Positions 593-63,968 of a stretch of 64,000 nucleotides of DNA are shown one piece after another. This DNA comes from Selenomonadaceae bacterium (GTDB lineage: Bacteria; Bacillota; Negativicutes; Selenomonadales; Selenomonadaceae), in contig JAFWFO010000001.1 in the NCBI GenBank assembly GCA_017515635.1, positions 1,162-65,161 of the forward strand, in the 5' to 3' direction. The notes beneath the pieces were generated by a model. The model did no database searches and was not told where the DNA came from. It saw nothing but the letters and a program-made list of their open reading frames with translations. Position 1 is the stretch's first letter; each line of letters opens with the position of its first letter. A program made the translations under genes and the position numbers.

Positions 593-2074
593 TTGATAAA
601 AAAACTCAGCGAACTTGCGTTGCTCATCCCCGAAGCGAAAATTTTGGGCAACGACGTTGAAATTTCCGGTATTGAACACGATTCACGCAAGGTTACGGCG
701 AAAAATCTTTTCGTGTGCATGGAAGGCGCGCACGTTGACGGACATAATTTTATCCCGCAGGCAGTTGACGGAGGTGCGGTCGCAGTTCTCACGGCGCGAC
801 AAAATTTCACGCCGCCCGAAAATATTTCCGCGCTGGTTGTCCCCGACATGCTCAATGCGCTTGCGGTTATCGTCCCGTATTTTTACGATTATCCTGCGCG
901 GGCAATGCGAGTTGTCGGCGTCACCGGCACGAACGGCAAAACCACGACGACTTACATGTTGCGCGAAATTTTTTCGACTGCGGGACTTAAAGTCGGCGTA
1001 ATCGGCACGATTCAAATTTTGATTGGCGACGAAAGTTTTCCGAATCCGAACACTACGCCGAACGTCATCGACTTGCAACACGTTTTCGCGGACATGCGGG
1101 CGAAAAATGTTCAAGTTGTCGTCATGGAAGTTTCAAGCCACGCGCTTGCCGAAAATCGCGTTGCGGGCGTCGAATTCGATACGGCGATTTTCACGAACTT
1201 GACGCAAGATCATTTGGATTTTCATGGCACGATGGAAAATTATTTGCGGGCGAAGGCAAAACTTTTCGACATGGTTTCGCGCAAAGGTCGCAAGCAAAAT
1301 AAATCGGCGATTGTCAACGTCGACGACGCGGCGGGCGAAGAAATTTTACGTCATTGCCACTGCAACAAAATTTCTTACGGCGTCGAAAATTCGGCGGACT
1401 TGCACGCGGTTGACGTGAATGTTAAATCGGATGGCATGAAATTCAAAATCCGCGCAGATTTCGGCGTCATGAATTTGACTTTGCACGTGACGGGAATTTT
1501 CAACGTCTATAACGTGCTTGCGACAATCGGGGCGGCTCTTGCGGAAAATATTTCGCCCGAAATTATCAAGCGTGCCTTGGAAAATTTCCGTTGCGTGCCG
1601 GGACGTTTCGAGCGGATTTTTTCATCTGCACCGTTTGAAGTTATCGTCGACTACGCGCACACTCCCGACGGCGTCAAAAATGTTTTGGAGACAGCGCGGC
1701 AAATCGTCACGGGAAAAATTATTACGGTTTTCGGTTGCGGCGGAGATCGCGACAACAAAAAGCGTCCGATTATGGGCAAACTTGCGGCGGAACTTTCCGA
1801 CGTTGTGATTGCCACTTCCGACAATCCGCGCACCGAAAATCCCGAAAAAATTCTTGACGACATCGAAATCGGTATCCGCGAAGTTATCGGCGAAAAAATT
1901 TACGAACGAATTGCCGACAGACGTACCGCGATTTTCCGTGCGATTGAGCTGGCGAATTCCGGCGACGTGGTTTTGATTCTCGGCAAAGGTCACGAAGATT
2001 ATCAGATACTCAACACGGGCAAGATTCACTTTGACGACAGAGAAGTTGCTCGCGAAGCAATAGATAAGCTTTGA
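593..2074 (+). CDS. murE: UDP-N-acetylmuramoyl-L-alanyl-D-glutamate--2,6-diaminopimelate ligase
   Basis: Mur ligase P-loop GVTGTNGKTTT. A DNPR motif (SDNPRTE) is typical of meso-DAP-adding MurE. The start is placed at in-frame TTG 593, 8 nt after AGGAGGGAGG; the ORF-track ATG is at 545. Confidence 0.93.
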   Translation: MIKKLSELALLIPEAKILGNDVEISGIEHDSRKVTAKNLFVCMEGAHVDGHNFIPQAVDGGAVAVLTARQNFTPPENISALVVPDMLNALAVIVPYFYDYPARAMRVVGVTGTNGKTTTTYMLREIFSTAGLKVGVIGTIQILIGDESFPNPNTTPNVIDLQHVFADMRAKNVQVVVMEVSSHALAENRVAGVEFDTAIFTNLTQDHLDFHGTMENYLRAKAKLFDMVSRKGRKQNKSAIVNVDDAAGEEILRHCHCNKISYGVENSADLHAVDVNVKSDGMKFKIRADFGVMNLTLHVTGIFNVYNVLATIGAALAENISPEIIKRALENFRCVPGRFERIFSSAPFEVIVDYAHTPDGVKNVLETARQIVTGKIITVFGCGGDRDNKKRPIMGKLAAELSDVVIATSDNPRTENPEKILDDIEIGIREVIGEKIYERIADRRTAIFRAIELANSGDVVLILGKGHEDYQILNTGKIHFDDREVAREAIDKL

Positions 2075-2147
2075 GCTTTAAGGGGTAACGAAAAATTTCC
2101 TTAAAGCTTAAAGCTCATAAGCTCATAAGCTCATAAGCTCAAAGCTA
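2064..2147 (+). repeat. AAGCTTT heptamer-repeat hairpin plus AAGCTCAT x3 between murE and murF
   Basis: The arms AAGCTTTGAGCTTTAAGG and CCTTAAAGCTTAAAGCT flank a 15-nt loop, followed by (CATAAGCT)x3. The murE TGA lies inside the left arm. Confidence 0.85.
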
Positions 2148-3760: not shown

Positions 3761-4174
3761 ATGCAAAGGAGACTCCCTTTTATGGAAAACTCAGAACTGG
3801 AAAAAAAATTGAGCTACTACATGTCGTTGCCGTATCAGATTGTGGTTACGCCTTCACCGGAGGGCGGTTATGCCGCAAAAATCCCCGACTTGCCCGGTTG
3901 CATAACGCAGAGCGAAAGTCGCGAAGAAATTATCGCAATGATTGAAGACGCGAAACTTTGTTGGCTTACGGCTGAACTTGAAGATGAAGACGACATCCCC
4001 GAACCGCCCGACCCGTATAAATTCGACGGACAGTTAAGGTTGCGTATTCCGCGTTCACTGCACAAGGAATTATCGCGGTGTGCGGCACGTGACGGAGTGA
4101 ATCTCAATCAGATGGCGATTTATCTTATCGCGGATGGTTTAAGCAAACGTTTTGCGACTGACGGGCAGGATTGA
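3761..4174 (+). CDS. hicB: HicB-family antitoxin (UPF0150 N-domain plus RHH C-domain)
   Basis: Y.I.V.P..EGGY.A.IPDLPGC.T.....EE.....EDA is the HicB N-domain signature. RIPRSLHKELSRCAARDGVNLNQMAIYLIA is an RHH-like tail. The start codon follows the hicA stop directly; ATG 3782 is an alternative start. Confidence 0.8.
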   Translation: MQRRLPFMENSELEKKLSYYMSLPYQIVVTPSPEGGYAAKIPDLPGCITQSESREEIIAMIEDAKLCWLTAELEDEDDIPEPPDPYKFDGQLRLRIPRSLHKELSRCAARDGVNLNQMAIYLIADGLSKRFATDGQD

Positions 4175-5322: not shown

Positions 5323-6684
5323 ATGGATTTGGAGAATAAAAAAGTTTTGGTTATCGGCGCGGCACGTAGCGGCATTGCGGCGGCGAAGGTTGCAAAAAAA
5401 TTCGGCGCACTCGTTATCTTGAGCGACGCCAAACTTGAGAGCGAAATTAATTTTGATTTTGACGAACTGCGCGGGCTTGGAATTGATTTGAGTTTCGGCA
5501 AGCAGACCGACGAACTTTTGAGCGGCGTGGATTTGATAATTGTTTCGCCCGCCGTCCCGATAAAAATTCCGTTGCTCAAAAGCGCGGCGGCAAAGAATAT
5601 TCCGATTATCAGCGAAGTCGAATTGGCTTACTCTTTGGCGAAGTCTCCGATTTGCGCGGTGACCGGCACCAACGGCAAAACCACGACGGTTACATTACTC
5701 GGTCTGTTGCTGAAAGAAAAATTTTCCAAAGTCGGCGTCGGCGGAAATATCGGCGTCCCGTTGAGCGAAGTTGCTTTGGAAGTCGGCGCGGGCGGTTGCA
5801 TTGCCGCTGAAATTTCCAGTTACCAAATGGAGGCGACGAAAAATTTTAAACCGCACGTCTCGGCGATTTTGAACGTCACGCCCGATCATTTGAAACGTCA
5901 TGGCTCAATGGAAGTTTATCAGGCGATGAAGGAAAAAATTTTCGCGCAGGAAACCACTGAAGATTTTCTGGTTTTGAATTACGACGACGAAAAAGTCCGC
6001 GAAATGATTGACCGCGCAGGTTGTCGCGTGCTTTACTTCAGCCGCAAAGTTAAACTTTTTGAAGGGGCGTTCGTCAAAAATAATCGGCTCGTCATCAAAT
6101 TCAACGGCGAAACTCACGAACTCTGCACGGTCGACGAACTCGGCATTAAAGGTTGGCATAACGTCGAAAATGCATTGGCGGCGGCATTGACGGCGTTTCT
6201 TGCGGGCGTCGACGCGGAAAAAATTTCCAACGTGCTGAAAACTTTTCAAGGCGTGGAACATCGAATTGAATTCGTGCGCGAAATTGACGGCGTGAAATAT
6301 TACAACGACTCGAAGGCGACAAACACCGATTCGGCGATTAAAGCTCTCGAAACTTTTGCGGGGCACATAATTTTGATTGCGGGCGGCGACGACAAGGGCA
6401 CTGACTTAACAGATTTTCTGCGGCTCGTCAATGAACGCGTCGATTATTTGATTCTCGTCGGTGACGCGGCGAAACGTTTCAAAACCTGCGCGCTTGCCGA
6501 AAATTTCCCTGCCGAAAAAATTTTGGAAGCGGGCTACTCCATGCAACGCGCCGTTGAACTTGCCAAAGAAATTGCTCGTCCGCCGCAAGTTGTATTGCTC
6601 AGTCCCGCCTGCGCAAGTTTCGACATGTACAGCGATTTTGAGGAACGCGGGCGAGATTTCAAGAAGATAGCTTTTGAGCTTTGA
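5323..6684 (+). CDS. murD: UDP-N-acetylmuramoylalanine--D-glutamate ligase
   Basis: N-terminal Rossmann motif VIGAARSG, Mur ligase P-loop AVTGTNGKTTT, and dcw synteny. ATG 5323 lies behind GGAG; the track start is GTG 5314. Confidence 0.93.
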   Translation: MDLENKKVLVIGAARSGIAAAKVAKKFGALVILSDAKLESEINFDFDELRGLGIDLSFGKQTDELLSGVDLIIVSPAVPIKIPLLKSAAAKNIPIISEVELAYSLAKSPICAVTGTNGKTTTVTLLGLLLKEKFSKVGVGGNIGVPLSEVALEVGAGGCIAAEISSYQMEATKNFKPHVSAILNVTPDHLKRHGSMEVYQAMKEKIFAQETTEDFLVLNYDDEKVREMIDRAGCRVLYFSRKVKLFEGAFVKNNRLVIKFNGETHELCTVDELGIKGWHNVENALAAALTAFLAGVDAEKISNVLKTFQGVEHRIEFVREIDGVKYYNDSKATNTDSAIKALETFAGHIILIAGGDDKGTDLTDFLRLVNERVDYLILVGDAAKRFKTCALAENFPAEKILEAGYSMQRAVELAKEIARPPQVVLLSPACASFDMYSDFEERGRDFKKIAFEL

Positions 6685-6703
6685 GCTTTAAGCTTTAAGG
6701 GGG
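6668..6703 (+). repeat. AAGCTTT heptamer repeat, left arm of the inverted repeat enclosing the four-helix-bundle gene
   Basis: GAGCTTTGAGCTTTAAGCTTTAAGG. Its reverse complement matches 7069-7093 at 23 of 25 positions. The murD TGA lies inside it. Confidence 0.85.
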
Positions 6704-6716
6704 AACCGGCTTCATT

Positions 6717-7088
6717 ATGGTTGCTAAAGACCACAAAGATTTAATCGTTTGGCAAAAGTCCATGGACTTGCTCGTCGAAGTTTATCGGCTCGTCAAGAAA
6801 TTGCCGCGTGAAGAAACTTACGCGCTTTCAGACCAAATGCGGCGGGCAGCTGTCTCCATTCCGTCGAACATTGCGGAAGGGCGCGGGCGTTCCTCCGAAA
6901 AAGATTACATCCGCTTTTTGTTCATTTCGCGGGGGTCGCGTGCTGAACTTGATACGCAACTTTTGGCGTGTATTCGGCTCGGCTATCTCGACGAATCCGA
7001 CGTTGAAAACGCTCTAAATTTATCTTCTGAAATCAGTAGCATGTTGAATTCCATGATTTACAAATTATCCTTAAAGCTTAAAGCTTAA
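6717..7088 (+). CDS. four-helix-bundle protein of the 23S rRNA intervening-sequence (S23p-like) family
   Basis: 123 aa. L.VWQKS.DL...VY.L.KKLP.EE.Y.L.DQ.RRAAVSIPSNIAEG.GR.S.KD...FL.I.RGS..EL.TQL matches the TIGR02436/PF05635 signature from memory. Confidence 0.8.
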   Translation: MVAKDHKDLIVWQKSMDLLVEVYRLVKKLPREETYALSDQMRRAAVSIPSNIAEGRGRSSEKDYIRFLFISRGSRAELDTQLLACIRLGYLDESDVENALNLSSEISSMLNSMIYKLSLKLKA

Positions 7089-7100
7089 AGCTTAAAGCTT
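7066..7100 (+). repeat. AAAGCTT heptamer repeat (x4), right arm of the inverted repeat
   Basis: CCTTAAAGCTTAAAGCTTAAAGCTTAAAGCTT. The TAA stop of the enclosed ORF lies inside it. Confidence 0.85.
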
Positions 7101-7123
7101 CGACAACGAGGCAAAAATAACAG

Positions 7124-8218
7124 ATGAGACTAATAGTATCGGGCGGCGGCACGGGCGGACACATTTACCCCGCGCTCACGCTCATTGACGCAATTAAAAC
7201 GAAACGCCCCGACGCAGAATTTTTATACGTCGGCACGAAAAAAGGTCTTGAGGCGGACATTGTCCCAAAGGCTGGAATAAATTTCACCGCGCTCAATCTC
7301 GAAGGCGGGCTGGAACGTCGATTCACTTTGGCGAACATTTCACGTGCCGCCAACGCGATTTGGAGTATCAAACACGCCTCGGACATTGTTCACGATTTCA
7401 AGCCGAATGTTGTTGTCGGCACGGGCGGTTATGTCTGCGGACCGATTCTGCTTGCCGCAAGCTTGATGAAAGTTCCCACGCTGATTCAGGAACAAAACGC
7501 CGTCGCGGGTGTCACGAATAAAATTTTGTCAAAGTTCGTGACGAAAATTGCTGTCGGGACTCATGACGCGCTGAAAAATTTCCCCGCAGAAAAAACCGTT
7601 TACACCGGCAACCCGATTCGTTCGGAAGTTCTTGCCGCGAAAAAATCCGACGGGCTTAAAGAATTCGGATTCACCGCCGACAAGCCGATTGTTTTAATTT
7701 CGGGCGGTTCTCGCGGCGCACGAAGCATTAATAACGCAATGATTGAAGTTTTAAAATCTGCCGCTCAAAAAAATTCCGCGCAGTTTCTTCACGTCACGGG
7801 CAAAGGCGAATTCGACGCCGTCACCGAAAAATTAACCGATGTACTCGACGCGCCGAATATAAAAGTAGTACCGTATCTTTACAACATGCCGCGTGCAATG
7901 GCGATGGCAGATTTGGCAATTTTCCGTGCGGGCGCGACGGGTTTGGCGGAATTGACGGCTCGCGGCGTCCCGTCGATTTTAATTCCGTATCCGTTCGCGG
8001 CGGAAAATCATCAGGAATTCAACGCACGGGCACTTGTCGAGGCAGGCGCGGCGCGAATGATTTTAAATAAAGACTTGACGGCAGAAATTTTATCGGCGAA
8101 AATTGACGAGTTATTGACTGCACCCGAAACGCTCAAAAAAATGTCCGAAGCAAGTTTGTCGCTCGGCAAACCGCACGCCGCCGACGAAATTGCAGAACTT
8201 ATTCTTGAGCTTATATAA
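7124..8218 (+). CDS. murG: undecaprenyldiphospho-muramoylpentapeptide beta-N-acetylglucosaminyltransferase
   Basis: N-terminal GGGTGGHIYPAL, GT28 architecture, and dcw synteny. Confidence 0.95.
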   Translation: MRLIVSGGGTGGHIYPALTLIDAIKTKRPDAEFLYVGTKKGLEADIVPKAGINFTALNLEGGLERRFTLANISRAANAIWSIKHASDIVHDFKPNVVVGTGGYVCGPILLAASLMKVPTLIQEQNAVAGVTNKILSKFVTKIAVGTHDALKNFPAEKTVYTGNPIRSEVLAAKKSDGLKEFGFTADKPIVLISGGSRGARSINNAMIEVLKSAAQKNSAQFLHVTGKGEFDAVTEKLTDVLDAPNIKVVPYLYNMPRAMAMADLAIFRAGATGLAELTARGVPSILIPYPFAAENHQEFNARALVEAGAARMILNKDLTAEILSAKIDELLTAPETLKKMSEASLSLGKPHAADEIAELILELI

Positions 8219-8244: not shown

Positions 8245-8520
8245 ATGGCCAACGAAGTGACTGTCGAGGTAAAGATTGACGCCGATTTGAAAGAGGCCGC
8301 CGAAAAAATTTTCACGCGGATGGATATGAGTTTTTCCGAGGCAATATCCGCTTTCGCCAAAGAAACAATCACGCAAAACCGCATGCCGTTTTACGTGAAG
8401 CCGAAAAGAAAATCCGCGTTCGGCTCGCTTGCAAAGTTCGCTAATCCAAAATGGGTCGGGCTTGAAGAAATCGCGTGGGAAAGGTTCGTGATCGAAAAGT
8501 ATGGCAAGGATATTAATTGA
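8245..8520 (+). CDS. RelB/DinJ-family antitoxin
   Basis: 91 aa. The N-terminus V.VKIDADLKEAAEKIF..MDMSFSEAISAF.KE.I.QNRMPF resembles the DinJ RHH domain. It overlaps the downstream PIN gene by 20 nt. Confidence 0.7.
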   Translation: MANEVTVEVKIDADLKEAAEKIFTRMDMSFSEAISAFAKETITQNRMPFYVKPKRKSAFGSLAKFANPKWVGLEEIAWERFVIEKYGKDIN

Positions 8521-8869
8521 CACAAACGTCGTGCTGCGTTACCTGTTGCGCGACCATCCGAAACAATCAATGCAGGCGAAAAAAGCTGTGGAAATCGGCG
8601 CGGTTGTTTTGCCCGAAGTTTTGGTTGAGACGGCGCACGCGTTGAAAAATGTTTATCGTGTCGACAGACAACACATCGCGGCGAATTTGATGACTTTGCT
8701 AAACGAAGTTGAAGTCGAACGAAAGCCGGTTATGGTTCACGCCGTGGAACTTTATGCCGACTCCCCCGATTTGGATTTTATGGACTGTATTATTTTGGCG
8801 TATTTCGACATTGAAAATATTCGCGTGTTTACCTTTGACCCGAAACTTAATCGCGTTCCGAAGTCTTGA
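8501..8869 (+). CDS. PIN-domain toxin (VapC-like ribonuclease)
   Basis: 122 aa. The N-terminal ILIDTNVVLRYL carries the first acidic residue, followed by E/D positions and a D.MDC motif typical of PIN domains. Confidence 0.7.
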   Translation: MARILIDTNVVLRYLLRDHPKQSMQAKKAVEIGAVVLPEVLVETAHALKNVYRVDRQHIAANLMTLLNEVEVERKPVMVHAVELYADSPDLDFMDCIILAYFDIENIRVFTFDPKLNRVPKS

Positions 8870-8878: not shown

Positions 8879-11221
8879 TTGAATTTGAAAGTTGACGGCT
8901 TGAAAAAATTTCATTTCATTGGTATCGGCGGCGTCGGCATGAGCGCGCTTGCCAAAATTTTAATCGAGAGCGGTTGCGAAGTCAGCGGCTCGGATATGAA
9001 AAATTCGCCGACTCTGGAAATGCTTAAGAGTATCGGCGCAAAAATTTTTGTCGGACATGACGCGAAAAATATTTTAGACGACGCGGGCAATCCTTGGCCT
9101 GAAGCCGTTGTTTGTTCCAGCGCAATCCCCGGCGACAATCCCGAAATAATTGCGGCGGCGAAGTTCAGAATTCCGAAACTCCACCGCTCCGACATAAATT
9201 CTTATCTGCTCAATTCGCGCAAGGGCATTGCGGTTTCCGGCTCGCACGGCAAAACCACGACAACTTCAATGATTGGTTACGTCTTGCACAGCGCGAACGT
9301 TGACCCGACGATAATTATCGGCGGCGAATCAACCGACTTGGGTACGGGTGCAATTCTCGGCGGCAGCGATTGGCTCGTCACGGAAGCCGACGAAAGCGAC
9401 GGAAGTTTTTTGACGCTCAAGCCGAAAATTGCCGTCGTCACCAACGTCGAAGATGATCACCTTGACCATTACGGCACGATTGAACGAATTCGCGCCGCGT
9501 TTAAAATTTTTATCGAAAACCTCGATCGCGAAACGGGCGTTGCCGTCGTTTGTTTCGACAACGATAATGTCCGCGAAATTGCCGGCGAAGTCGACAGAAA
9601 AATTATTTCCTACGCGATTCATCACGACGCGGACTTTATGGCGCGCAACATTCGCACGACAACCAGAGGCGTCGGCTTTGAAGTTGTTCAGCATGTCGGC
9701 GACGACGAAAAAATTCTCGGCAAAGTTAAGCTCGCGATTCACGGGCGGCATAATGTTTTGAACGCATTGGCGACGATTGCGACAGGTTTGCAAGTCGGCG
9801 TAAGTTTCGCGAAGATTGCCGAAGGTTTACGGACTTTTCACGGCGCAAAAAGACGTTTCCAATCCAAAGGACGAATCAGAAATGTTTTGGTCGTCGACGA
9901 TTACGCGCACCACCCGACGGAAATTGCCGCCACGCTCAAGGCCGCTCGCGAAATTAAACCGAATAAAGTCGTTTGCATTTTTCAGCCGCACCGTTACAGC
10001 CGCACGCAACTTTTGCTGAAGGAATTCGGCAACGCTTTTCGTGATGCGGACGTTTTGATTTTGACGGACATTTATTCTGCCGGCGAAGAAAAAATTTCGG
10101 GCGTCAGCGGCGAATCAATTCTGCATGAAGTTTTGCGCACGACGAATCAAGCCGTGTCGTACATTCCGAAACGCGAAGACATTGCCGCAGCGATTAAAGA
10201 CCAGCTCACGGCGGGCGATTTGGTTATCACTATGGGCGCGGGCGACATTTACAAGACCGGCGAAGAAATTTTGGAACTGCTCAAACAGGAACGCCGCAAA
10301 AAAATTGTCGTCATTGCGGGCGGCACGTCAACCGAGGCCGAAGTTTCACGCCGCACGGGCAAGGCCGTTGTCGACGCGCTTAAATCAAAAAATTACAACG
10401 TCGAAATGCTTGAACTTCAGCCGGAAACTTTTGCCGCCACGATTCGTGAAAAAAATCCGCTGATTGTTTTCAACGCGGTTCACGGAAAATACGGCGAAGA
10501 CGGCTTGATTCAAGGCACGCTCGATATGCTGAAAATTCCTTACACGGGGTCGGGCGTTCTTGCCGCCGCGCTGACGATGGACAAAGTCGCCACGAAACAT
10601 TTTTTGAACTCCGCCAACTTGTCCACGCCGAAATTTGCCGTCTATCGCGAAATTGACCGCACAGACGAACTTGCCGCCGAAGTCGAAAAAAAATTTGGAG
10701 TGCCCGTTGTTATCAAAGCCGCCGCGCAGGGTTCAAGTATCGGCGTGACGATTGTCGAACATGCGGACGACATTGACGAGGCGATTGACAACGCGTTTAC
10801 TTTTGGCGACGAAATTTTGGTTGAAGAATTCATCAAAGGCCGCGAATTGACGGTTGCAGTCATGGGCAACGAAGACGAGGCGGAAGCTCTGCCGATTATC
10901 GAAATCACCACGACAACGGGACGTTACGACTACAAAACGAAATACACTGCCGGCATGTCGACGCACATCTGTCCTGCGGAACTGCCCGAAGATTTGACCG
11001 ACGAAATCAAAAAACTTGCCGTTGCCGCGTTCAAACTTTGCAAATGCGCGGGTGTCGCTCGCGTTGACATGATGCTTTCCGAAAAAAATATTCCTTACGT
11101 TATCGAAGTAAATTCCGTGCCCGGCATGACGGAAACTTCACTTGTCCCCGACGCGGCTCGTGCGGCAGGTATCGAATTCCCCGAACTGTGCGAAAAAATT
11201 TTGGCGGCGGCGGGCTTCTGA
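8879..11221 (+). CDS. murC: bifunctional UDP-N-acetylmuramate--L-alanine ligase / D-alanine--D-alanine ligase (MurC-Ddl fusion)
   Basis: A single 780-aa ORF. The N-half carries FIGIGGVGMSALA and SGSHGKTTT (MurC). The C-half has an ATP-grasp ending EVNSVPGMTETSLVP (Ddl). TTG start behind GAGGAGG. Confidence 0.92.
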   Translation: MNLKVDGLKKFHFIGIGGVGMSALAKILIESGCEVSGSDMKNSPTLEMLKSIGAKIFVGHDAKNILDDAGNPWPEAVVCSSAIPGDNPEIIAAAKFRIPKLHRSDINSYLLNSRKGIAVSGSHGKTTTTSMIGYVLHSANVDPTIIIGGESTDLGTGAILGGSDWLVTEADESDGSFLTLKPKIAVVTNVEDDHLDHYGTIERIRAAFKIFIENLDRETGVAVVCFDNDNVREIAGEVDRKIISYAIHHDADFMARNIRTTTRGVGFEVVQHVGDDEKILGKVKLAIHGRHNVLNALATIATGLQVGVSFAKIAEGLRTFHGAKRRFQSKGRIRNVLVVDDYAHHPTEIAATLKAAREIKPNKVVCIFQPHRYSRTQLLLKEFGNAFRDADVLILTDIYSAGEEKISGVSGESILHEVLRTTNQAVSYIPKREDIAAAIKDQLTAGDLVITMGAGDIYKTGEEILELLKQERRKKIVVIAGGTSTEAEVSRRTGKAVVDALKSKNYNVEMLELQPETFAATIREKNPLIVFNAVHGKYGEDGLIQGTLDMLKIPYTGSGVLAAALTMDKVATKHFLNSANLSTPKFAVYREIDRTDELAAEVEKKFGVPVVIKAAAQGSSIGVTIVEHADDIDEAIDNAFTFGDEILVEEFIKGRELTVAVMGNEDEAEALPIIEITTTTGRYDYKTKYTAGMSTHICPAELPEDLTDEIKKLAVAAFKLCKCAGVARVDMMLSEKNIPYVIEVNSVPGMTETSLVPDAARAAGIEFPELCEKILAAAGF

Positions 11222-14047: not shown

Positions 14048-15319
14048 ATGGTTGGTGTCAGAAAAGTTGTAGCGATAGTTTGCGGCGGTGGTCCCGCGCC
14101 CGGTATGAACGCCGTCATCAATGCGGTAACGAACACCGCGAACCGTCACGGTTGGGACGTTCTCGGCATGTACGACGGATTTTCGCATCTCGGTCGAGGC
14201 GAAAAAAGTTACATTCGCCTTGATTCGTCCGTCGTCAACAGAATTCATTTGACGGGCGGTTGTATTCTGCGCATGTCGCGTTTCAACCCCACGAAAAAAG
14301 AATCCGACTTGCGCACGGTCGTCGACACGTTGACTGAACTCGGCGTCGGCTATCTCGTGACAATCGGCGGCGACGATACCGCCTTCAGCTCATCGGCTGT
14401 TTCCGAATACGCCCGCAAACTCGGCAGGACGATTAACGTCGTGCACGTCCCGAAAACCATCGATAACGATTTGCCGTTGCCCGAAGGCATTCCGACTTTC
14501 GGCTTTGAAACCGCCCGCGCATTCGGCACGACGGAAATTCAAAACCTCATGGAGGACGCGCACACCTCGAACAATCGCTGGTACTTCACAATCGCAATGG
14601 GACGCACGGCAGGACATCTCGCGTTGGGCATGGGACGCAGTGCAGGTGCCGCCGTTACTATTATCCCTGAAGAATTCCCGCAGGAAAAAATTCGTCTGCA
14701 ACAGGTCGTTGACATTATCACCGGCTCGATTGTCAAACGCTACCTTATCGGCAAAAATTACGGCGTTGCGGTCGTCGCTGAAGGCGTCATCGAAAAAATT
14801 GCTGAGGAAGATTTCCAAGAACTCGGCAACGTCGTCCTCGACGAACACGGCCACATTCGTTATGCGGAATTGGACTTCGGCGAAATTCTTAAGCAAAAAG
14901 TTTTGTCGGAACTCAAACGCCTTGATTTGAAATTCTCAATCGTCGACAAAGAAATCGGCTACGAACTGCGTTGCACGGCTCCGATCGCTTACGACATCGA
15001 CTATGCCCGCAATTTGGGTTACGAAGCAATGCAATTCCTTATGCGCGGCGACAGTGGTGCACTTATCACGATTCAAGACAACAAGGCCGTTCCGCTCCGC
15101 TTTGAAGACATTCGCGACCCCGCCACGGGTAAAACTTTCGTGCGCAGAGTCAACATCGATTCCGTTCACTACAGAATTGCTCGCGGCTTCATGACTCGCC
15201 TTGAACGTGACGATTTGGATGACGCCGGTGTTGCCAACGCATTCCGCATGAGCCCCGAAGAATTCAAAAATCGCTACATGTATTTGTTCGACGAAGAACC
15301 GACGCTTAACAATGCGTAA
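14048..15319 (+). CDS. pfp: pyrophosphate-dependent 6-phosphofructokinase (PPi-PFK type)
   Basis: GGGPAPGMN is present. GGDDT and PKTIDND replace the GGDGS and PGTIDND of ATP-dependent PFKs. The Asp and Lys substitutions are the established PPi-specificity markers. Confidence 0.85.
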   Translation: MVGVRKVVAIVCGGGPAPGMNAVINAVTNTANRHGWDVLGMYDGFSHLGRGEKSYIRLDSSVVNRIHLTGGCILRMSRFNPTKKESDLRTVVDTLTELGVGYLVTIGGDDTAFSSSAVSEYARKLGRTINVVHVPKTIDNDLPLPEGIPTFGFETARAFGTTEIQNLMEDAHTSNNRWYFTIAMGRTAGHLALGMGRSAGAAVTIIPEEFPQEKIRLQQVVDIITGSIVKRYLIGKNYGVAVVAEGVIEKIAEEDFQELGNVVLDEHGHIRYAELDFGEILKQKVLSELKRLDLKFSIVDKEIGYELRCTAPIAYDIDYARNLGYEAMQFLMRGDSGALITIQDNKAVPLRFEDIRDPATGKTFVRRVNIDSVHYRIARGFMTRLERDDLDDAGVANAFRMSPEEFKNRYMYLFDEEPTLNNA

Positions 15320-15342
15320 TGCGTAATGCTTAATGCGTAATT
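15311..15342 (+). repeat. GCGTAAT heptamer tandem repeat (4 units) carrying the pfp stop codon
   Basis: AATGCGTAATGCGTAATGCTTAATGCGTAATT. TAA occurs at 15317, 15324, 15331 and 15338, which covers all three frames. Confidence 0.9.
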
Positions 15343-27469: not shown

Positions 27470-28708
27470 TTATTTGCTCATTGCCTCAATGCAAAGTTGA
27501 CGAGTTTTCTTCGCACGTTCAAAATTTGGATTGAGTTCAAGAGCTTTGTCCAAACTTTTTATCGCTTGCCGGTAATCTTTCAGGAAATAATAAGCCGCGC
27601 CGCGATTGTTGTACGCCTCGGTATAATTCGGATTAAGCTGAATTGCTCTATCGAAATCTTTAACCGCCCGCTCGTATTGCTTGTTGTGGAAGTGAATAAT
27701 TCCGCGATTATTGTAAGCCAAAGCATAATTCGGGTTGATTTGAATTGCCTTGTCGAAATTTTGAAACGCTTGCTCATATTGCTGTTTATGCAAGTAAGCG
27801 TTGCCGCGATTGTAATATGCTTTGTCGAAATTCGGATTGAGTCGAATTGCTTCGTCGTAATCTTGAATCGCTCTATCGTATTGATTCAAATTGTCGTAAA
27901 CACTTCCGCGGTTATTGTACGCCAGAACATAATTCGGATTGAGTTCGATGGCCTTGTCATAATCTTGAATCGCCCGCTCGTATTGTCTCAAGTCGTCGTA
28001 AACGTTTCCGCGATTGTTATACGCTCCAAAATAATTCGGATTGATTTGAATTGCTTCGTCGTAAAGTTTCATCGCTCCGTTGTAATTTTTGGCGTAATAA
28101 AGTTTGTTGCCCGCGTCAAGTTTTTGCTCCGCTAAAAATTCACGGTCGGCGTCGTTTATCTGCTCGCGAATTTGATTTTTTTCGTCTTGAGATGTTGCGC
28201 TCCGATATTGTTCCTGCAAATTCTCGGCAAGCTCGTCATTTCTCTGAATCGCGTCTTGCAAGTCGTTATTCTGCCTCAGAATTGCAACTTTGTCTGTTTC
28301 GTCGCGGTTAATCCAATCGTAAATGCCGTCGGGGTCGATTTTCGCTTGAAGTGTCGCCGTATAAAGAATTGTCGTCTGACTGTCGCTGAGCGGAATAATT
28401 TTTTTGTCGAAGTTGACTTCGCCGATAATCTCGATGATATTGTTCGTGACCGCTGAAATTTCGTCTTCCGCAAGCTCAAGGTTGACGGTTTTTGAAAAAG
28501 TTTTGAGATAAACGCCGGCTTTTTTCTGAGCGTCGAGTTGAGCGCGTTGGCTTGCGCGAGACATTGCAATTTTTTGATTGTCGTCGTCGTTGGTGTGCCA
28601 TTCGCCTTTGCCGTCAAAAATTTGTACGGCCGCAACGCAAATCGTCGCCGAAATCACACACGCGACAATAAAAATCGCCGTCAACGCCCGTCGAAAAAAT
28701 TTTTTCAT
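27470..28708 (-). CDS. membrane-anchored tetratricopeptide-repeat protein
   Basis: N-terminal TM or signal segment, then a coiled segment. At least 7 tandem 34-aa TPR units follow (AIQ.NPNY..AYNNRG..Y..L.QY..AI.D.D.AI). ATG lies behind GAGGAGGTGA. Confidence 0.85.
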   Translation of the reverse strand: MKKFFRRALTAIFIVACVISATICVAAVQIFDGKGEWHTNDDDNQKIAMSRASQRAQLDAQKKAGVYLKTFSKTVNLELAEDEISAVTNNIIEIIGEVNFDKKIIPLSDSQTTILYTATLQAKIDPDGIYDWINRDETDKVAILRQNNDLQDAIQRNDELAENLQEQYRSATSQDEKNQIREQINDADREFLAEQKLDAGNKLYYAKNYNGAMKLYDEAIQINPNYFGAYNNRGNVYDDLRQYERAIQDYDKAIELNPNYVLAYNNRGSVYDNLNQYDRAIQDYDEAIRLNPNFDKAYYNRGNAYLHKQQYEQAFQNFDKAIQINPNYALAYNNRGIIHFHNKQYERAVKDFDRAIQLNPNYTEAYNNRGAAYYFLKDYRQAIKSLDKALELNPNFERAKKTRQLCIEAMSK

Positions 28709-37944: not shown

Positions 37945-38036
37945 TGCTTCGCCTCCGAAAAAATTTTCGCTATCGTGATTCGTCGACGCGCCGTCAAATT
38001 CCTGCCGCAGTTTTGTCACAATAACGCGCCGAAAAA

Positions 38037-38068
38037 ATTCCTAACTCCTAATTCCAAACTCCTAACTG
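38037..38068. repeat. CCTAA(C/T)T heptamer-like repeat in the gmhB/ctsR divergent region
   Basis: ATTCCTAACTCCTAATTCCAAACTCCTAACTG. It has a single arm and no inverted partner nearby. Confidence 0.7.
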
Positions 38069-38077
38069 AAAAAACGC

Positions 38078-38106
38078 TTGCCGATTTGATTTTTTACGGC
38101 TATAAT
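38078..38106 (+). promoter_or_regulatory. sigma-70-type promoter TTGCCG-17nt-TATAAT, with one CtsR-box-like half-site (GTCAAAA) directly downstream
   Basis: -35 at 38078-83 and -10 at 38101-06. GTCAAAA at 38107-13 resembles one heptad of the (A/G)GTCAAA-NAN-(A/G)GTCAAA CtsR operator. The second heptad is not convincing. Confidence 0.5.
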
Positions 38107-39393: not shown

Positions 39394-39401
39394 TAATCGC
39401 G

Positions 39402-39594
39402 AAACTTGGGGCGGAGCGAAATTCTCCACCGGCGGTGACAGTCCGCGAGCCTTTTTTCAGTTAGGAATTTGGAATTAGGAATTAGGAATTAGTTGAACGA
39501 CTTAATTCCTAACTGCTAACTCCTCACTCCTAATTAAAAAGGTTGACTCGGCGAAATTCCGAGACCGACGGTTAAAGTCCGGATGTGAAAGTTT
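39402..39594 (+). promoter_or_regulatory. FMN riboswitch (RFN element) aptamer with an enlarged variable hairpin
   Basis: P1 is AAACUU/AAGUUU. The conserved blocks are GGGGCGGAGCGAAAUUCUCCACCGGCGGU, AGUCCGCGAGCC and GGCGAAAUUCCGAGACCGACGGUUAAAGUCCGGAUG.GA.AG. A ~90-nt heptamer-repeat hairpin sits in the variable loop. Confidence 0.9.
39459..39538 (+). repeat. AATTAGG heptamer-repeat hairpin
   Basis: AGTTAGGAATTTGGAATTAGGAATTAGGAATTA-loop-TAATTCCTAACTGCTAACTCCTCAC. The 33-nt left arm is identical to the reverse complement of part of 62941-63016. Confidence 0.85.
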
Positions 39595-39612
39595 TGCAAA
39601 CATCAATTTGAA

Positions 39613-43175: not shown

Positions 43176-44369
43176 ATGAGTGAATTTGCAACGATTGAGC
43201 AGGCTATTGACGACATTAAGCGCGGCAAGATGATTGTTGTTGTCGACGACGAAGACCGCGAAAACGAAGGCGACTTGATTGTTGCCGCCGAGACCGTCAC
43301 GCCCGCCGACATAAATTTTATGGCGACGCACGCCAAAGGTTTGATTTGCACGCCCATTGACGGCAAACGCCTTGACGAACTGGAAATCGGGCAGATGGTC
43401 ACCAACAACACCGACAATCACGAAACGGCCTTCACGGTGTCGATTGACGCTTACGACACGGACACGGGCATTTCCGCTTACGAACGCTGTCACACGATTA
43501 AAATGTTGCTTGACCCTGCCGCGAAGTCTTCAAGTTTTCGTCGACCGGGTCACGTCTTCCCGCTACGTTCGGTTGAGGGCGGAGTTTTGCGCCGCGCCGG
43601 TCACACGGAGACGACAACCGACCTTGCGCGATTGGCGGGCTTTTATCCTGCGGGTTTGTGTTGCGAAATTATGGATGACGACGGGCACATGATGCGCACG
43701 GAAAATCTTAAAAAATTCGCGGACAAACACGGGCTGAACATTATCAGTGTTCGGGCGTTGATTGAATATCGCAAGCGCACGGAAAAATTCGTCAAGCAAA
43801 TTGCCGACGTGGATTTTCCCAGCAAGTACGGGCATTTTCGGCTTAAAGCTTATGAAAGCACGCTTGACGGCAAATGTCATCTGGCGATTGTCAAAGGCGA
43901 CGTTGCGGGCAAGTCGAACGTTTTGGTTCGCGTGCATTCGGAGTGCCTGACGGGCGACGCGTTGGGAAGTTTGCGTTGTGATTGCGGCGATCAACTTGCC
44001 ACGGCGCTGAAAAAAATCGACGCGGCGGGCGAAGGCGTTTTGCTTTACATGCGGCAGGAAGGTCGCGGAATCGGACTTGCCAACAAAATTCGGGCTTACG
44101 CACTTCAAGACGCGGGCAAAGACACTGTCGAAGCGAACGTTATTTTGGGATTCAAGCCCGATCTTCGCGATTACGGTATCGGCGCGCAGATTCTTTCCGA
44201 CTTGGGCTTGACGACGATAAAACTTTTGACGAACAATCCCGCCAAACGCGCAGGACTTGAAGGGCACGGCTTGACTATAACCGAACGCGTCCCGATTGTC
44301 ATTGCGCCGACGAAGTTCGATAAAAATTATCTCACCGTCAAAAAAACTAAAATGGGTCACGTATTGTAA
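43176..44369 (+). CDS. ribBA: bifunctional 3,4-dihydroxy-2-butanone-4-phosphate synthase / GTP cyclohydrolase II
   Basis: [11 protein letters not shown] (DHBP synthase), and [20 protein letters not shown] (the GCH II zinc site). Confidence 0.95.
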
Positions 44370-44449
44370 GCTTTTAGCTTATGAGCTTTAAGCTTTAAGT
44401 AAAATTTTCGTCACTCCCTTAAAGCTCAAAGCTTGCAGTTTAAAGCTAA
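44366..44449 (+). repeat. AAGCTTT heptamer-repeat hairpin between ribBA and ribH
   Basis: The arms GAGCTTTAAGCTTTAAG and CTTAAAGCTCAAAGCTT flank a ~18-nt loop. The ribBA stop TAA begins the repeat. Confidence 0.8.
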
Positions 44450-45699: not shown

Positions 45700-45733
45700 A
45701 AAAAACCCCCCGACATTTGCCGAAGGGTTTTTT
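45700..45733 (-). terminator. cassette terminator (copy 1 of 3)
   Basis: The minus strand reads CCCTTCG-GCAAATGT-CGGGGGG plus a T-run. The same design occurs at 46107 and 46683. Confidence 0.75.
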
Positions 45734-45750
45734 GTTTGCGTTGCGACTTA

Positions 45751-45966
45751 TTAACTGGTTATCCAGTCCCAAGCCTGTTTAATCTTGTCACCAAGTGCAC
45801 TGCCGCCCGCCACGTTGTCGAGTTCCTCGTCGCTGAGTTGCTCCAAATCGTAGCCTTCAGCCTTCGCCAGCGCGATTGCTTGCGACTCGTTTTCCACGCC
45901 TTTGAATTTTGCGGCAAATTCCGCGTCGCTCTCGATTCTTGATTTAAATTCCTTGAAACCTTTCAT
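45751..45966 (-). CDS. Nif11-type double-glycine leader peptide precursor (16-aa core SALGDKIKQAWDWITS)
   Basis: MKGFKEFKSRIESDAEFAAKFKGVENESQAIALAKAEGYDLEQLSDEELDNVAGG|SALGDKIKQAWDWITS. It has the Nif11 N-terminal helix pattern and the LSDEEL..VAGG cleavage motif. Confidence 0.75.
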   Translation of the reverse strand: MKGFKEFKSRIESDAEFAAKFKGVENESQAIALAKAEGYDLEQLSDEELDNVAGGSALGDKIKQAWDWITS

Positions 45967-46009
45967 GATTATCATCCTCTAAATTGTAAATTGTTTCTTT
46001 CTGCACCTT

Positions 46010-46036
46010 ATACGTTGGAGTTCCGATTTCGTTACA
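46010..46036 (-). promoter_or_regulatory. ECF-sigma-like promoter TGTAAC-16nt-CGTAT (upstream of the Nif11 precursor)
   Basis: The minus strand reads TGTAAC (46036-31), a 16-nt spacer, then CGTAT (46014-10). A sigma-A-like TTGCGG-16-TAAAGT lies just upstream. Confidence 0.45.
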
Positions 46037-46074
46037 CACTTTAGCAGAAAATTTTTCAGCCGCAAAGAATTTTT

Positions 46075-46107
46075 CATTACGCATTACGAATTACGCATTA
46101 CGCATTG
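46075..46107 (-). repeat. GCGTAAT heptamer tandem repeat (4-5 units)
   Basis: The minus strand reads CAATGCGTAATGCGTAATTCGTAATGCGTAATG, with a 7-nt period. Confidence 0.85.
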
Positions 46108-46144: not shown

Positions 46145-46161
46145 CTGCCGAGACGATTTTT

Positions 46162-46651: not shown

Positions 46652-46682
46652 GAATTTAGCAGAAATTTTTTGTCCGTCAACG

Positions 46683-62940: not shown

Positions 62941-63016
62941 GTGAGGAGTTTGAAGTTAGGAGTTAGGAGTTAATCTCGTCTTAATTCCTAATTCCTAATT
63001 CCAAATTCCTAACTCA
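62941..63016 (-). repeat. AATTAGG heptamer-repeat hairpin (same element as in the FMN riboswitch loop)
   Basis: The minus strand reads GAGTTAGGAATTTGGAATTAGGAATTAGGAATTA-loop-AACTCCTAACTCCTAACTTCAAACTCCTCAC. The TAG stop of the upstream gene lies in the first unit. Confidence 0.85.
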
Positions 63017-63968
63017 TAATTGCTTTATCGACGCCCGTCTCGTCGAAAGTTTTCATTTCGTTTAACATGGTCAATGCCGCTTCGACAATCTCGACGCCCG
63101 CGCAGGATGCCTCGCCGTCAAAACCATTAGGCGTGCCGTCGTCGGACTCATAAACAATCAGCCTGTCGACGCGCAAAATGAACGGGCGAATTTCGGGACA
63201 AATTTTTTCCATGTAGCGGGCAATGATGTCCGCCGCGCCCGTGTCGACGACAATCAACGTGGAATTATGCGCCGCCGCGACAAGTGCCCCGATAATCGCG
63301 CCGGTCATTGCCTGATAATTTTTCGGGACGTGACGCAAAAATTCTTCGGGCGGGAATTTTAAATCGCCGTCGGGCGTCAACAACGCGTCGTAAAATTTTT
63401 CGGCAAGTCTGTCCTCCAAAAGGTTACCCAAATCCGTGAGCGCAAGAATCGGCGTTTCAAAAGAAATTTCTTCGGCAAGGTTGCGTCCGAAATTGAACGC
63501 GGCATTTAAATTTTCTTCGGGATTGATGACGCCCAAAAAAATTTTCATGCCGAAAGTTCGAGTCGTCGCGCTGAAATCCATTGCCAAATCACGGCGACCG
63601 CCCTTCACGTTGGGATTGTAATTTTCGTCGGTGAATGACGGGCAGTTTTCAAAATTCGTGAAGGCAAGCGCGGCATGACGCAATTTGTTCGTCGGACAAT
63701 CTTCGTTGGAAATTCCCGCCGCCTGCACTGCAATTTCTTCGAGATAACCCAAACTTCCACGCGGCTTTGTCAAGTTGTCGATAAGTTCGCGGCAATTTTT
63801 CATTGCACGGTCGTTGAGTTTCGGCATCGTCTGCAGATAAAAATTAAAAGTTCTGTCGGTCGCGACAACACGGTCGTCGTCGTCCTCGCCCATGACGCGC
63901 ACAGCCATCGGATAAGCGCGGGGAATGTTCATTTTGTTCGTGTCGAACGGCAATTCAATGCTGTCCAT
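63009..63968 (-). CDS. CobT-like (nicotinate-nucleotide--dimethylbenzimidazole phosphoribosyltransferase family) protein
   Basis: LTKPRGSLGYLEEIAVQAAGI matches the CobT KPxGSLGxLE signature. The reading frame stays open upstream to the window edge, so the true start may lie beyond 64000. The ORF ends in TAG. Confidence 0.65.
   Translation of the reverse strand: MDSIELPFDTNKMNIPRAYPMAVRVMGEDDDDRVVATDRTFNFYLQTMPKLNDRAMKNCRELIDNLTKPRGSLGYLEEIAVQAAGISNEDCPTNKLRHAALAFTNFENCPSFTDENYNPNVKGGRRDLAMDFSATTRTFGMKIFLGVINPEENLNAAFNFGRNLAEEISFETPILALTDLGNLLEDRLAEKFYDALLTPDGDLKFPPEEFLRHVPKNYQAMTGAIIGALVAAAHNSTLIVVDTGAADIIARYMEKICPEIRPFILRVDRLIVYESDDGTPNGFDGEASCAGVEIVEAALTMLNEMKTFDETGVDKAIMS

Follow-up and report, generated by a model that had tools for sequence, protein, structure and literature searches.

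The segment at positions 6673–7100 of the 64,000 nt stretch of DNA analysed here (the window), which comes from a Quinella-like rumen member of the Selenomonadaceae, is probably a 'loaded' member of a family of hairpin insertion elements built from heptamer arrays, IVS-like and MITE-like in character. The arms of this family would be inverted tandem-heptamer arrays, (YAG-N4)n on the 5' side and (N4-CTR)n on the 3' side. In the loaded copy they enclose an IVP gene.

The initial annotation had assigned the enclosed ORF to the protein family of the 23S rRNA intervening sequences (IVSs). Profile searches bear this out, with the cut-offs of both PF05635 (23S_rRNA_IVP; E 2.2e-40, 137.6 bits against a cut-off of 33.8) and TIGR02436 (133.6 bits against 24) being passed, and residues 7–112 aligned to positions 1–106 of the 106 in the PF05635 profile. 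The AF2 model of the IVP (pLDDT 94.9) has four helices arranged as an up-down four-helix bundle. Foldseek matches this model to 2GSC (TM 0.89, 46% identity) and 2RLD (TM 0.80), both of which have five chains, and the IVP is described as a pentamer in crystals (Lin et al. 2006, as cited in PMC3936711). With omega between 0.03 and 0.18, the IVP gene is a real gene under strong purifying selection. To our knowledge no function is known for the IVP family, for which there are thousands of genes and two crystal structures. The fold is shared with Avd, the accessory protein of DGRs, which is also a pentamer and works in a nucleic-acid complex; the TM score to Avd in the DGR RNP structures (PDB 8UBE and related entries) is 0.76. 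However, the IVP scores 31 bits against the Avd equivalog NF033474, for which the cut-off is 80, and its neighbours are murD and murG, with no reverse transcriptase or template/variable (TR/VR) repeats adjoining.

The inverted repeat around the IVP gene (6673–6700 and 7069–7096) has 28 nt arms, complementary at 26 of 28 positions (93%), with a spacing of 368 nt. The 25 nt arms first reported to bracket the whole ORF read as claimed, and are part of this fuller repeat. As in an IVS, the ends of the insert are predicted to form a long stem around the ORF, and this long-range stem is present in both the MFE and the centroid structures of 6660–7110 (z = -3.9). The murD ORF ends at 6684 and its TGA stop codon (6682–6684) is inside the left arm. 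Likewise, the right arm contains the IVP stop codon and the last six codons, and the C-terminal KLSLKLKA comes from the right array. The Shine-Dalgarno-like AAGGGGGA is 12 nt upstream of the IVP start codon and pairs through its first four bases with CCTT in the right arm; in all orthologous cassettes a purine-rich RBS is found straight after the left array. Allowing up to two mismatches, there are 18 occurrences of AAGCTTTAAGCTTT against 0.59 expected. The features of the window are listed in Table 1.

Table 1. Heptamer-array features identified in the window
Feature	Position	Strand	Description
Left arm	6673..6700	+	TTTGAGC TTTGAGC TTTAAGC TTTAAG(G); array call (GAGCTTT/AAGCTTT) x3.9
Right arm	7069..7100	+	C + (CTTAAAG) x4.4; complements left arm
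Shine-Dalgarno-like AAGGGGGA	6697..6704	+	Inner end of left arm; from sequence reading and fold
IVP gene	6717..7088	+	123 aa, PF05635/TIGR02436 four-helix bundle
Empty A-type hairpin, murE–murF	2066..2116	+	19-bp stem, 11-nt apical loop
Empty A-type hairpin, ribBA–ribH	44383..44434	-	Arms as in 2066–2116, orientation inverted
Empty C-type hairpin	39459..39535	+	(TTAGGAA)n / (TTCCTAA, CTCCTAA)n
Empty C-type hairpin	62945..63021	-	Between two minus-strand genes
C-type half array with CTGAAAAAA terminus	38036..38084	-	Inverted near-copy (90%) of 39442–39490
Single B-type array (AATGCGT) x4.4	15311..15341	+	Just past gene end, before terminator-like hairpin
Sister B-type arrays	46075–46106 and 52160–52185		Reverse-complement units

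An assembly artefact is ruled out, since the cassette is identical at every base across five independent metagenome assemblies. Rfam gave no match within the cassette, even with the threshold relaxed to E ≤ 1, and the interval 6600–7200 is free of called terminator-like sites. The stems have no U-tract 3' of them and are therefore not terminators, and a terminator or attenuator reading was rejected. No rRNA is present in the 64 kb window, the cassette being located in the murD–murG spacer and not in helix 25 or 45 of 23S rRNA.

Short-loop hairpins with common arms had also been described at murE–murF and ribBA–ribH. Both were found, with identical arms (AAGCTTTGAGCTTTAAG / CTTAAAGCTTAAAGCTC) in opposite orientations and with related loops, and the 'loaded' and 'empty' hairpins are one family, as was originally suggested. 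Fold z values of the short hairpins are -5.8 and -3.6 to -4.6. The murE stop codon TGA (2072–2074) is within the left arm of the first of these hairpins, which is followed by an 8-mer array, (AAGCTCAT) x4.6, at 2111–2146. Degenerate units are present next to the ribBA–ribH hairpin at 44367–44382. In total, the 64 kb contain three A-type copies, two C-type hairpins and one separate C-type half array, the last of these in the spacer from which a HAD-hydrolase gene and ctsR diverge. The C-type hairpin at 39459–39535 interrupts an FMN riboswitch (39398–39598) at the apical loop of its variable helix. In the other, at 62945–63021, the 5' arm on the transcribed strand consists of the YAG-type array, TTAGGAA. 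All of the arrays in the window are outside ORF bodies. The B-type arrays, having a unit without AG and no partner arm, count against the cassette reading.

The three A-type elements and the riboswitch hairpin of the window are insertions relative to related genomes. In outgroups and several Quinella-like genomes murD abuts murG, with a gap of 0–30 nt, and other Quinella-like genomes carry at this junction an SMR gene, another type of IVP gene, an empty heptamer hairpin (L047) or the window cassette. The expectation that ftsW would normally be at this position is wrong for this lineage, where ftsW has never occupied the junction: murD abuts or overlaps murG in Selenomonas, Anaerovibrio, Megamonas and several of the Quinella-like genomes. 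The murE and murF genes overlap in most genomes; the A-type hairpin is present between them in the window and in L007, and a hairpin with a different unit is at the identical point in L027. Similarly, ribBA and ribH overlap in three relatives. Because the genes in related genomes abut or overlap in this way, the A-type elements of the window are seen to be clean insertions. The loop of the FMN riboswitch reads GCC-GUAA-GGC in L192, and L194 and L195 have a comparably short one (aptamers of 116–117 nt), while in the window and in L193 it holds heptamer hairpins of 76–79 nt, which are thus present in two genomes and absent from three. The riboswitch hairpin is an 'intervening sequence' of the empty kind, carried by a structured RNA on the same principle as the IVSs of rRNA. 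In L007 and L022 an array is in frame inside murD, with the in-frame TAG mutated away.

Across the family, IVP genes are tied to complementary heptamer arms of their own. Bracketing stems were found for 42 of 66 metagenomic IVP genes (64%), while among other genes of these contigs the count was 3 of 149 (2%). Within 150 nt of the ends of IVP genes (45 kb) there are 75 period-7 arrays, as opposed to 19 in 224 kb further off, and other periods are close to zero. Arms score a median of 18 when paired with their own partner and a median of 7 with the arms of other loci (95th percentile 13.5). Each locus has its own heptamer unit, and only YAG in the left arm and CTR in the right arm are conserved across loci. 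AG is present in the unit of 91 of 96 arms (47% expected) and YAG in 77 of 96 (23% expected). On the sense strand, YAG is on the 5' side in 43 of 44 left arms, with CT in 16 of 44. The median is approximately 4.3 units per arm, with a range of about 3 to 12 units per array. Cassettes are co-oriented with the upstream gene at 47 of 52 loci, and the stop codon of the upstream gene is within the left array at 16 of 32.

The same architecture is present on Anabaena, Nostoc, Geminocystis and Calothrix plasmids, in Mangrovibacterium and in type I R-M operons. The pattern is seen in Cyanobacteria, Bacteroidota and Xanthomonas (XCC0516), which makes at least three further phyla and at least four in total. 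In Xanthomonas, a GGGAATC array overlaps the start of XCC0516, a crystallised IVP (PMC4692102 supplement). Full-text searches of papers available without subscription turned up work on heptamer repeats and mentions of IVPs, and no link between the two. Counting against the cassette reading, about one third of the related IVP genes have no detectable bracket; in addition, the arrays of L180 are direct, not inverted. Of the distant arrays on IVP-bearing contigs, 12 of 37 match the local cassette unit at 6–7 of 7 positions, where 6% would be expected. Unit sharing within a genome is real but partial; the other 25 use other units, which also counts against the cassette reading. Period-7 arrays are also a feature of the Quinella-like genomes as a whole, with 42 in 629 kb against none in 245 kb of outgroup sequence, and a period census gave 49 period-7 arrays against 0–13 for each other period from 5 to 11.

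Vertical inheritance with covariation of the arms in situ was rejected. The identity of the IVPs is poorly correlated with that of their flanks (Spearman 0.23), and in L035 and L038 the flanks are 96% identical and the IVPs 87% identical, yet the arm units are entirely different. The covariation of the arms is therefore better read as the presence of distinct cassette lineages than as compensatory change. In the closest pairs, IVP dS is approximately 1.5–3 times that of the flanks. The clean filled and empty differences, the mismatch between cassette and flank histories, and the frequency of bracketing all fit the earlier suggestion that the hairpin is a package carrying IVS-type ORFs. These comparisons suggest that each element is mobile as a unit. 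Neither a transposase nor a recombinase nor a target-site duplication was found, the IVP gene being the only gene of the loaded copy and no transposase being near it, so that 'mobile' refers here to presence/absence and incongruent divergence only. In three filled/empty comparisons no target-site duplication is evident, and the junctions are short and A/T-rich. The arrays are invariant in five samples of the window population and therefore give no sign of current activity. On the plasmids of Nostoc PCC 7120 there are two identical IVP genes, with homology from the start codon to past the right array; these copies travel with an ISL3 fragment and without matched arms. The idea that GAGCTTT was derived from the native end of murD (GAGCTTTGA), which would have acted as a 'seed', is attractive for this locus but not established. 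Against it, the GAGCTTT unit is also present at murE–murF and ribBA–ribH, and the units of orthologous cassettes are different ones.

The layout of the cassette suggests how it may have been accommodated. It would have landed precisely where murD and murG meet in translational coupling. There the left array provides a stop codon for the truncated upstream gene, and the RBS behind this array would drive expression of the IVP gene, taken to be promoterless, from the transcript of the host operon. The IVP frame terminates in the right array, leaving the downstream gene with its own RBS. With a stop codon, an RBS, a frame end and a retained downstream RBS, such an insertion would be harmless. The arms would close into a stem of approximately 28 bp, placing the whole insert in a side-branch, as for the 23S IVSs and the FMN-riboswitch hairpin. 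It may be that this stem forms in the RNA and is processed or controls translation of the IVP. The IVP, which is pentameric in crystals and homologous to Avd, the RNA-binding protein of DGRs, may act on the arrays. The hairpins at murE–murF and ribBA–ribH are non-coding members of the repeat family, comparable to MITEs.

IVSs of 23S rRNA with an IVP ORF are described from Leptospira, Coxiella and others (Ralph & McClelland 1993, as cited in PMC3936711). These share with the window cassette the same protein family and an ORF in the loop of a long stem made from the ends of the insert; the insert is tolerated as a side-branch of the RNA that hosts it. The window has a sister element that likewise occupies the apical loop in a functional RNA helix, that of the FMN riboswitch. 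In contrast to the 23S IVSs, for which excision by RNase III is known, the host here is a protein-coding operon junction, the arms are locus-specific tandem heptamers, and none of the 80 closest metagenomic relatives is in an rRNA gene.

Short, terminally inverted, multi-copy insertions in transcribed spacers are known from other bacteria. The Correia/NEMIS elements of Neisseria are MITEs whose transcripts fold into hairpins that RNase III cleaves. REP/BIME elements have their own RAYT gene (PMC3733652). The elements described here resemble both in being strain-polymorphic and in that a minority carry a protein gene, most being empty. They are small, have terminal inverted repeats and occur in several copies, with presence/absence at the orthologous murE–murF, ribBA–ribH, FMN loop and murD–murG sites. 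They differ in having no transposase, RAYT or target-site duplication seen, in arms that are variable-unit arrays rather than a conserved TIR, and in an associated protein that is a four-helix bundle without known catalytic activity. Derivation from a transposase-encoding autonomous element was not found. The REP tag (GTAG or CGTC at the foot of a 20–40 bp palindrome) is absent from the window arms.

Published heptamer repeats include the STRRs of cyanobacteria, GGGAATC in Xanthomonas and GGGGAYT in Nostoc (PMC4692102), and TAACTGA in the Beggiatoaceae (PMC4679880). Like the arrays here, they are intergenic, consist of 2–14 heptamers and are often at gene ends, and the period-specific excess reported for them is also found here. 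Stop codons are present in all frames of one orientation, and inverted pairs are frequent (70 in X. campestris). However, these papers see the repeats as G-quadruplex formers or possible regulators, with no link to the IVP, whereas here they are arms around an IVP gene.

The cassette might instead be an intervening sequence of mRNA in the strict sense, with the stem of approximately 28 bp being a substrate for RNase III, the IVP message being excised from the murD–murG transcript, and the empty hairpins uncoupling neighbouring cistrons. This is possible, but doubtful. The stem is long enough and is in the predicted structures, members of the family are known from 23S IVSs that RNase III excises (PMC11270868), the sister hairpin lengthens a riboswitch helix as IVSs lengthen rRNA helices, and the stems, with no U-tract after them, are not terminators. 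Against this, mismatches in 55 stems are G.U-compatible in 54 cases and A.C in 50. The strand bias is neutral, giving no specific sequence support for selection of an RNA stem over a DNA-level origin of the complementarity, and no claim of a selected RNA stem is made. The empty stems are only approximately 19 bp, the location of the closest relatives outside rRNA genes is unfavourable, and one of the empty copies is inverted relative to its operon, so its sequence-specific features cannot matter on RNA.

HutP recognises UAG followed by four spacer bases, (UAG-N4)3, with a period of 7 and in competition with a hairpin, and TRAP binds spaced (G/U)AG triplets. The likeness of the arrays to these sites is one of RNA-site geometry only, (U/G)AG triplets at fixed spacing, the folds being unrelated to that of the IVP. 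By analogy, the IVP pentamer could bind single-stranded (YAG-N4)n RNA, one unit per subunit and in competition with the stem, controlling its own translation and, at empty copies, the flanking genes. In support of such a post-transcriptional regulon, YAG is invariant at a strict 7 nt period while N4 is free, the YAG arm is almost always 5' on the sense strand with CT much rarer there, the median number of units per arm is near to the five subunits of the crystal asymmetric unit, and the left arm ends in a ribosome-binding site. The membership of Avd in an RNA–protein complex and the strong selection on the IVP also agree with it. However, the Xanthomonas units (GGGAATC) and the B-type units of the window are without AG, array lengths vary widely, and the empty copy is found in both orientations. 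Arrays in coding sequence and in a riboswitch resemble tolerated insertions rather than regulators. A regulon of this kind is rather unlikely.

Coincidence, in which heptamer microsatellites slip up in any spacer and the IVP gene is merely between two of them, could draw on the richness of Quinella-like genomes in period-7 arrays and on the intergenic heptamer excess known in several phyla (PMC4692102, PMC4679880), but is strongly disfavoured and very improbable, as arrays are approximately 20 times denser at IVP gene ends than at least 400 nt away, control genes of the same contigs are rarely bracketed, the arms complement each other and not those of other loci, and slippage alone does not produce an inverted partner.

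The reading of the cassette as a loaded insertion element brings together two orphan features that are more than 30 years old, the IVP family and the excess of heptamer repeats in Cyanobacteria, Xanthomonas, Beggiatoaceae and others. They are joined by the evidence: in at least four phyla, the repeats are the arms on either side of the gene in a hairpin package. The (YAG-N4)n arrays are a concrete candidate substrate for the IVP. The presence of IVP genes in unrelated operons (cas, nrd, par, acc, mur and type I R-M) is explained without functional membership, which corrects guilt-by-association labels such as 'CRISPR-associated' for these genes. IVS-like insertions also extend beyond rRNA, to mRNA junctions, one coding region and a riboswitch helix. 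Tentatively, PF05635 proteins might be dedicated partners of heptamer-array elements, with a pentamer that recognises YAG-N4 arrays and either propagates the hairpins or runs a genome-wide post-transcriptional network. If so, propagation would represent a new transposase-less mobile element homing to transcribed junctions and the loops of RNA helices, and 23S IVSs, STRRs, the GGGAATC repeats of Xanthomonas and the 'four helix bundle' genes spread among cas, R-M and housekeeping operons would all belong to one system.

Heptamer-hairpin elements are insertions, the two ends of which are able to pair. In most relatives the end of murE runs over the start of murF (...AITEVxSHE* over ATGAATAA). There, in the window and in related contig L007, lies a hairpin of ~90 nt built of A-type (GAGCTTT-like) units, with GCxATx on one side and the ribosome-binding site of murF on the other; a hairpin of quite different units (TTAGGAG / CCTAAAT) is found at the identical point in L027. 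Likewise, ribBA and ribH overlap (ATGA) in three relatives and are separated by a hairpin in the window. As the initial annotation described, the two short-loop hairpins of the window have identical arms and related loops in opposite orientations.

The sole Rfam match in the window is an FMN riboswitch preceding the rib operon; it is 201 nt long as against the usual ~117 nt. A C-type hairpin (TTAGGAA / TTCCTAA) of 79 nt, set in the apical loop of the variable helix, accounts for the excess, and L193 has a similar insert of ~76 nt in the identical place (riboswitch at 2073–2269). Aptamers of 116–117 nt with a short loop and no insert are found in L192 (GCC-GUAA-GGC), L194 and L195, Quinella 2Q5 being among these three. 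Predicted folds of the insert-bearing riboswitch keep the riboswitch helices and extend the variable helix coaxially. As in the rRNA intervening sequences (IVSs), the hairpin is predicted to extend one helix of its host RNA with the others kept, which is the IVS principle in a structured RNA of another kind. In-frame arrays (AATTAGG) also lie inside the murD coding region of L007 (4200–4275, inverted partner AATTCCA also present) and L022 (4255–4290); in both, the unit that would otherwise bring a TAG into frame is mutated and reads TTG or TAT there.

Features of the window, with coordinates on the forward strand
Feature	Position	Length	Description
Empty hairpin, murE/murF	2066–2116		
HicB-like antitoxin gene	3761–4174		
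hicB-mraY segment	4230–4336	~128 nt	with 42/43-aa ORF
Left arm	6673–6700	28 nt	tandem heptamer array; murD stop codon inside
IVP gene (+)	6717–7088	123 aa	
Right arm	7069–7096	28 nt	tandem heptamer array; final six IVP codons and IVP stop inside
RelB/PIN toxin-antitoxin pair	8245–8869		
murC-ddl fusion	8879–11221		
AATGCGT / CATTACG arrays	15311–15341, 46075–46106, 52160–52185		third array family
102-nt tandem repeats	27600–28077		2–4 copies, ~76% identity
Inverted repeat	38036–38084 / 39442–39490	49 nt	90%; ctsR and a 205-aa ORF (no assigned family) lie between the two copies
FMN riboswitch	39398–39598	201 nt	
Empty hairpin, ribBA/ribH	44383–44434		
Peptide genes (-)	45700–47088		three; Nif11-type or double-glycine leaders, bacteriocin-like
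Terminator-like hairpins	45700–45741, 46100–46141		near-identical

Other repeats were found in the window. The first copy of the 49-nt inverted repeat reproduces part of the riboswitch helix and array in the 5' region of an opposite-strand HAD-hydrolase gene. The AATGCGT unit has neither AG nor an inverted partner, and two of its three arrays directly precede terminator-like hairpins, a (CATTACG) x4.6 array preceding the second of the near-identical pair. The 102-nt tandem repeats are probably a repeat-protein gene.

The gene order of the window is murE, murF, hicB-like, mraY, murD, IVP, murG, relB/PIN and fused murC-ddl. The closest MurG relatives are from uncultured rumen Selenomonadaceae, including named Quinella MAGs (94–75% identity); those of Selenomonas, Anaerovibrio and Megamonas match at ~60%. 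In these three genera, and likewise in several Quinella-like genomes, murD and murG adjoin or overlap (gap 0–30 nt); therefore ftsW was never at that junction. The initial annotation's placing of the gene at the ftsW position is thus abandoned; its proposal of loaded and empty IVS-type stem-loop elements is upheld.

Comparison of contigs indicates that the murD/murG junction is an insertion hot spot within the Quinella clade. It can hold nothing; most commonly, a gene for a 107-aa SMR/EmrE-like membrane protein (e.g. L009, L012, L017–L021, L024); the SMR gene with a second, divergent, array-less IVP type (L011, L025, L027); an empty heptamer hairpin (L047); or the present cassette type (the window, L006, L007, L010, L016, L022, L035, L037, L038). 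L008 has the SMR gene together with an IVP that is 61% identical and has a left array only. The same dcw operon also houses the HicB-like, RelB/PIN and murC-ddl genes. The hicB-mraY segment is single in the window and a tandem double in L001 (7334–7593), a contig otherwise 99.9% identical. Junctions of essential operons seem to accumulate small selfish genes in this lineage.

The initial reading of 6668–7100 matches the sequence, and the ORF belongs, as proposed, to the IVS-protein family. The whole PF05635 (23S_rRNA_IVP) profile aligns to it (E 2.2e-40; 137.6 bits against a cut-off of 33.8), and TIGR02436 ('four helix bundle protein') also exceeds its cut-off of 24, with 133.6 bits. The equivalog HMM for Avd, the accessory protein of diversity-generating retroelements (DGR), gave just 31 bits, below its cut-off of 80. 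AlphaFold, given 35 homologues, models the protein with confidence (pLDDT 94.9) as a four-helix bundle. This predicted structure fits both members of the family with a solved structure, XCC0516 (2GSC; TM 0.89, 46% identity) and BT_0352 (2RLD; TM 0.80), and, more distantly, Avd, including Avd within DGR ribonucleoprotein structures (TM 0.76). The IVP is under strong purifying selection (omega 0.03–0.18) and is therefore no decaying passenger. The arms of its cassette are 93% complementary over 28 nt, the inner end of the left arm being the Shine-Dalgarno-like AAGGGGGA. Their long-range stem closes the MFE and centroid folds of 6660–7110 (z = -3.9), and the cassette is unchanged across five independent assemblies from different samples.

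Among the sampled loci, only those of the Quinella clade have period-7 arrays: 42 were counted in 629 kb, and 0 in the 245 kb of outgroup loci. Period 7 accounts for 49 arrays; the other periods in the 5–11 range have 0–13 each. Heptamer arms are, moreover, a general property of the IVP gene family. In 80 metagenomic loci encoding relatives of 48–74% identity, 75 period-7 arrays lie no more than 150 nt from a gene end (45 kb in total) versus 19 in the 224 kb beyond, and other periods are essentially absent. Of 66 IVP genes, 42 have a bracketing stem with a score of at least 14; among 149 non-IVP genes of these contigs, 3 do. The unit is locus-specific (e.g. GTGGTTA, AGACGGC, AGTTTTC, TAGTGGA, TCAGGGA). 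Left arms pair with their own partner (median score 18) but fail to do so with right arms from elsewhere, for which the median is 7 and the 95th percentile 13.5. This specificity answers the objection that these are generic heptamer arrays. The sole feature common to the 96 arms is AG on the 5'-arm strand (91 arms; 47% expected), extended to YAG in 77 (23% expected), the remaining four unit positions being free. Cassette and upstream gene share orientation in 47 of 52 cases. Of 32 upstream genes, 16 end in a stop codon located in the left array and 7 others in one at most 7 nt away from it; in 23 of 43 left arrays each of the three frames contains a stop.

IVP genes with matching inverted heptamer arms are also found on complete cyanobacterial plasmids: between cas6 and cas4 in Anabaena sp. 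90, between nrdB and nrdA in Nostoc edaphicum, between parA-like and parB genes in Geminocystis, and 3' of a TraM-domain gene in Nostoc C052. The Pseudanabaena IVP, also between cas6 and cas4, has direct, not inverted, arrays. The cas6/cas4 loci of two of these plasmids (L176, L180) are type I-D. IVP genes in cas loci have been read as CRISPR-associated (PMC3936711); the present results suggest instead that they are insertions. In Mangrovibacterium (Bacteroidota) the gene is located in the bat operon, with (AAGAGGG)5 on one side and the complement of that array on the other. Further relatives lie within type I R-M operons (L188–L191), where a single 21-nt block of the right array distinguishes L188 from L189, a copy-number variation. 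A second Quinella cassette locus, with arms varying between species, has a gntR-type regulator on one side and glmU-prs on the other. In Xanthomonas campestris a GGGAATC array between bccP (XCC0517) and XCC0516 overlaps the XCC0516 start codon (Rehm et al. supplementary table, PMC4692102). Heptamer arrays, inverted pairs and all-frame stops are covered by Rehm et al. and by MacGregor for TAACTGA repeats (PMC4679880), neither of which mentions IVP genes. No earlier account of the link was found in the searchable literature, which omits most subscription journals.

Arm differences at orthologous sites could reflect compensatory evolution in place. In pairwise comparisons the identity of IVPs tracks that of MurD+MurG poorly (Spearman 0.23); L035 and L038 share 96% identity in their flanks and 87% in their IVPs, and their arm units are unrelated (TAGGTTT vs AAGCTTT); and IVP dS is ~1.5–3 times that of murD/murG in the closest pairs. 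Exchange of whole cassettes is therefore the better explanation from these comparisons. Most of 37 distant arrays on IVP contigs have a unit other than that of the local cassette, while 12 share it at 6–7 of 7 positions (6% expected). Plasmids gamma and alpha of Nostoc PCC 7120 (L182, L183) carry identical IVP genes, with homology from the start codon to just beyond the right array (CTTCTGC units) and, separately, over the 3' end of an upstream ISL3 transposase gene. Neither a transposase nor a target-site duplication was found for the hairpin elements.

The element gives the truncated upstream gene a stop; a ribosome-binding site, the promoterless IVP gene and the second array follow in that order, and the ribosome-binding site of the downstream gene stays intact. 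Within the transcript the stem probably forms and sets the insert apart, as required in the riboswitch case, and RNase III, which acts on such stems in rRNA, may cut it. Complementarity could equally have its origin at the DNA level, as in terminal inverted repeats, since mismatches in 55 stems are neutral for selection on RNA (54 G.U-compatible versus 50 A.C). The IVP may act on the arrays. HutP recognises (UAG-N4)3, a site that the 7-nt-spaced YAG of the IVP arrays resembles. This fixed spacing, its placement on the sense 5' arm, the arm length (median ~4.3 units) and the pentameric crystals of the family suggest that the IVP may be a HutP-like ring protein reading periodic triplets. The cassette is a variant of three known kinds of element, and its importance is that it joins them: rRNA IVSs, MITE/REP-like hairpins and heptameric SSRs.
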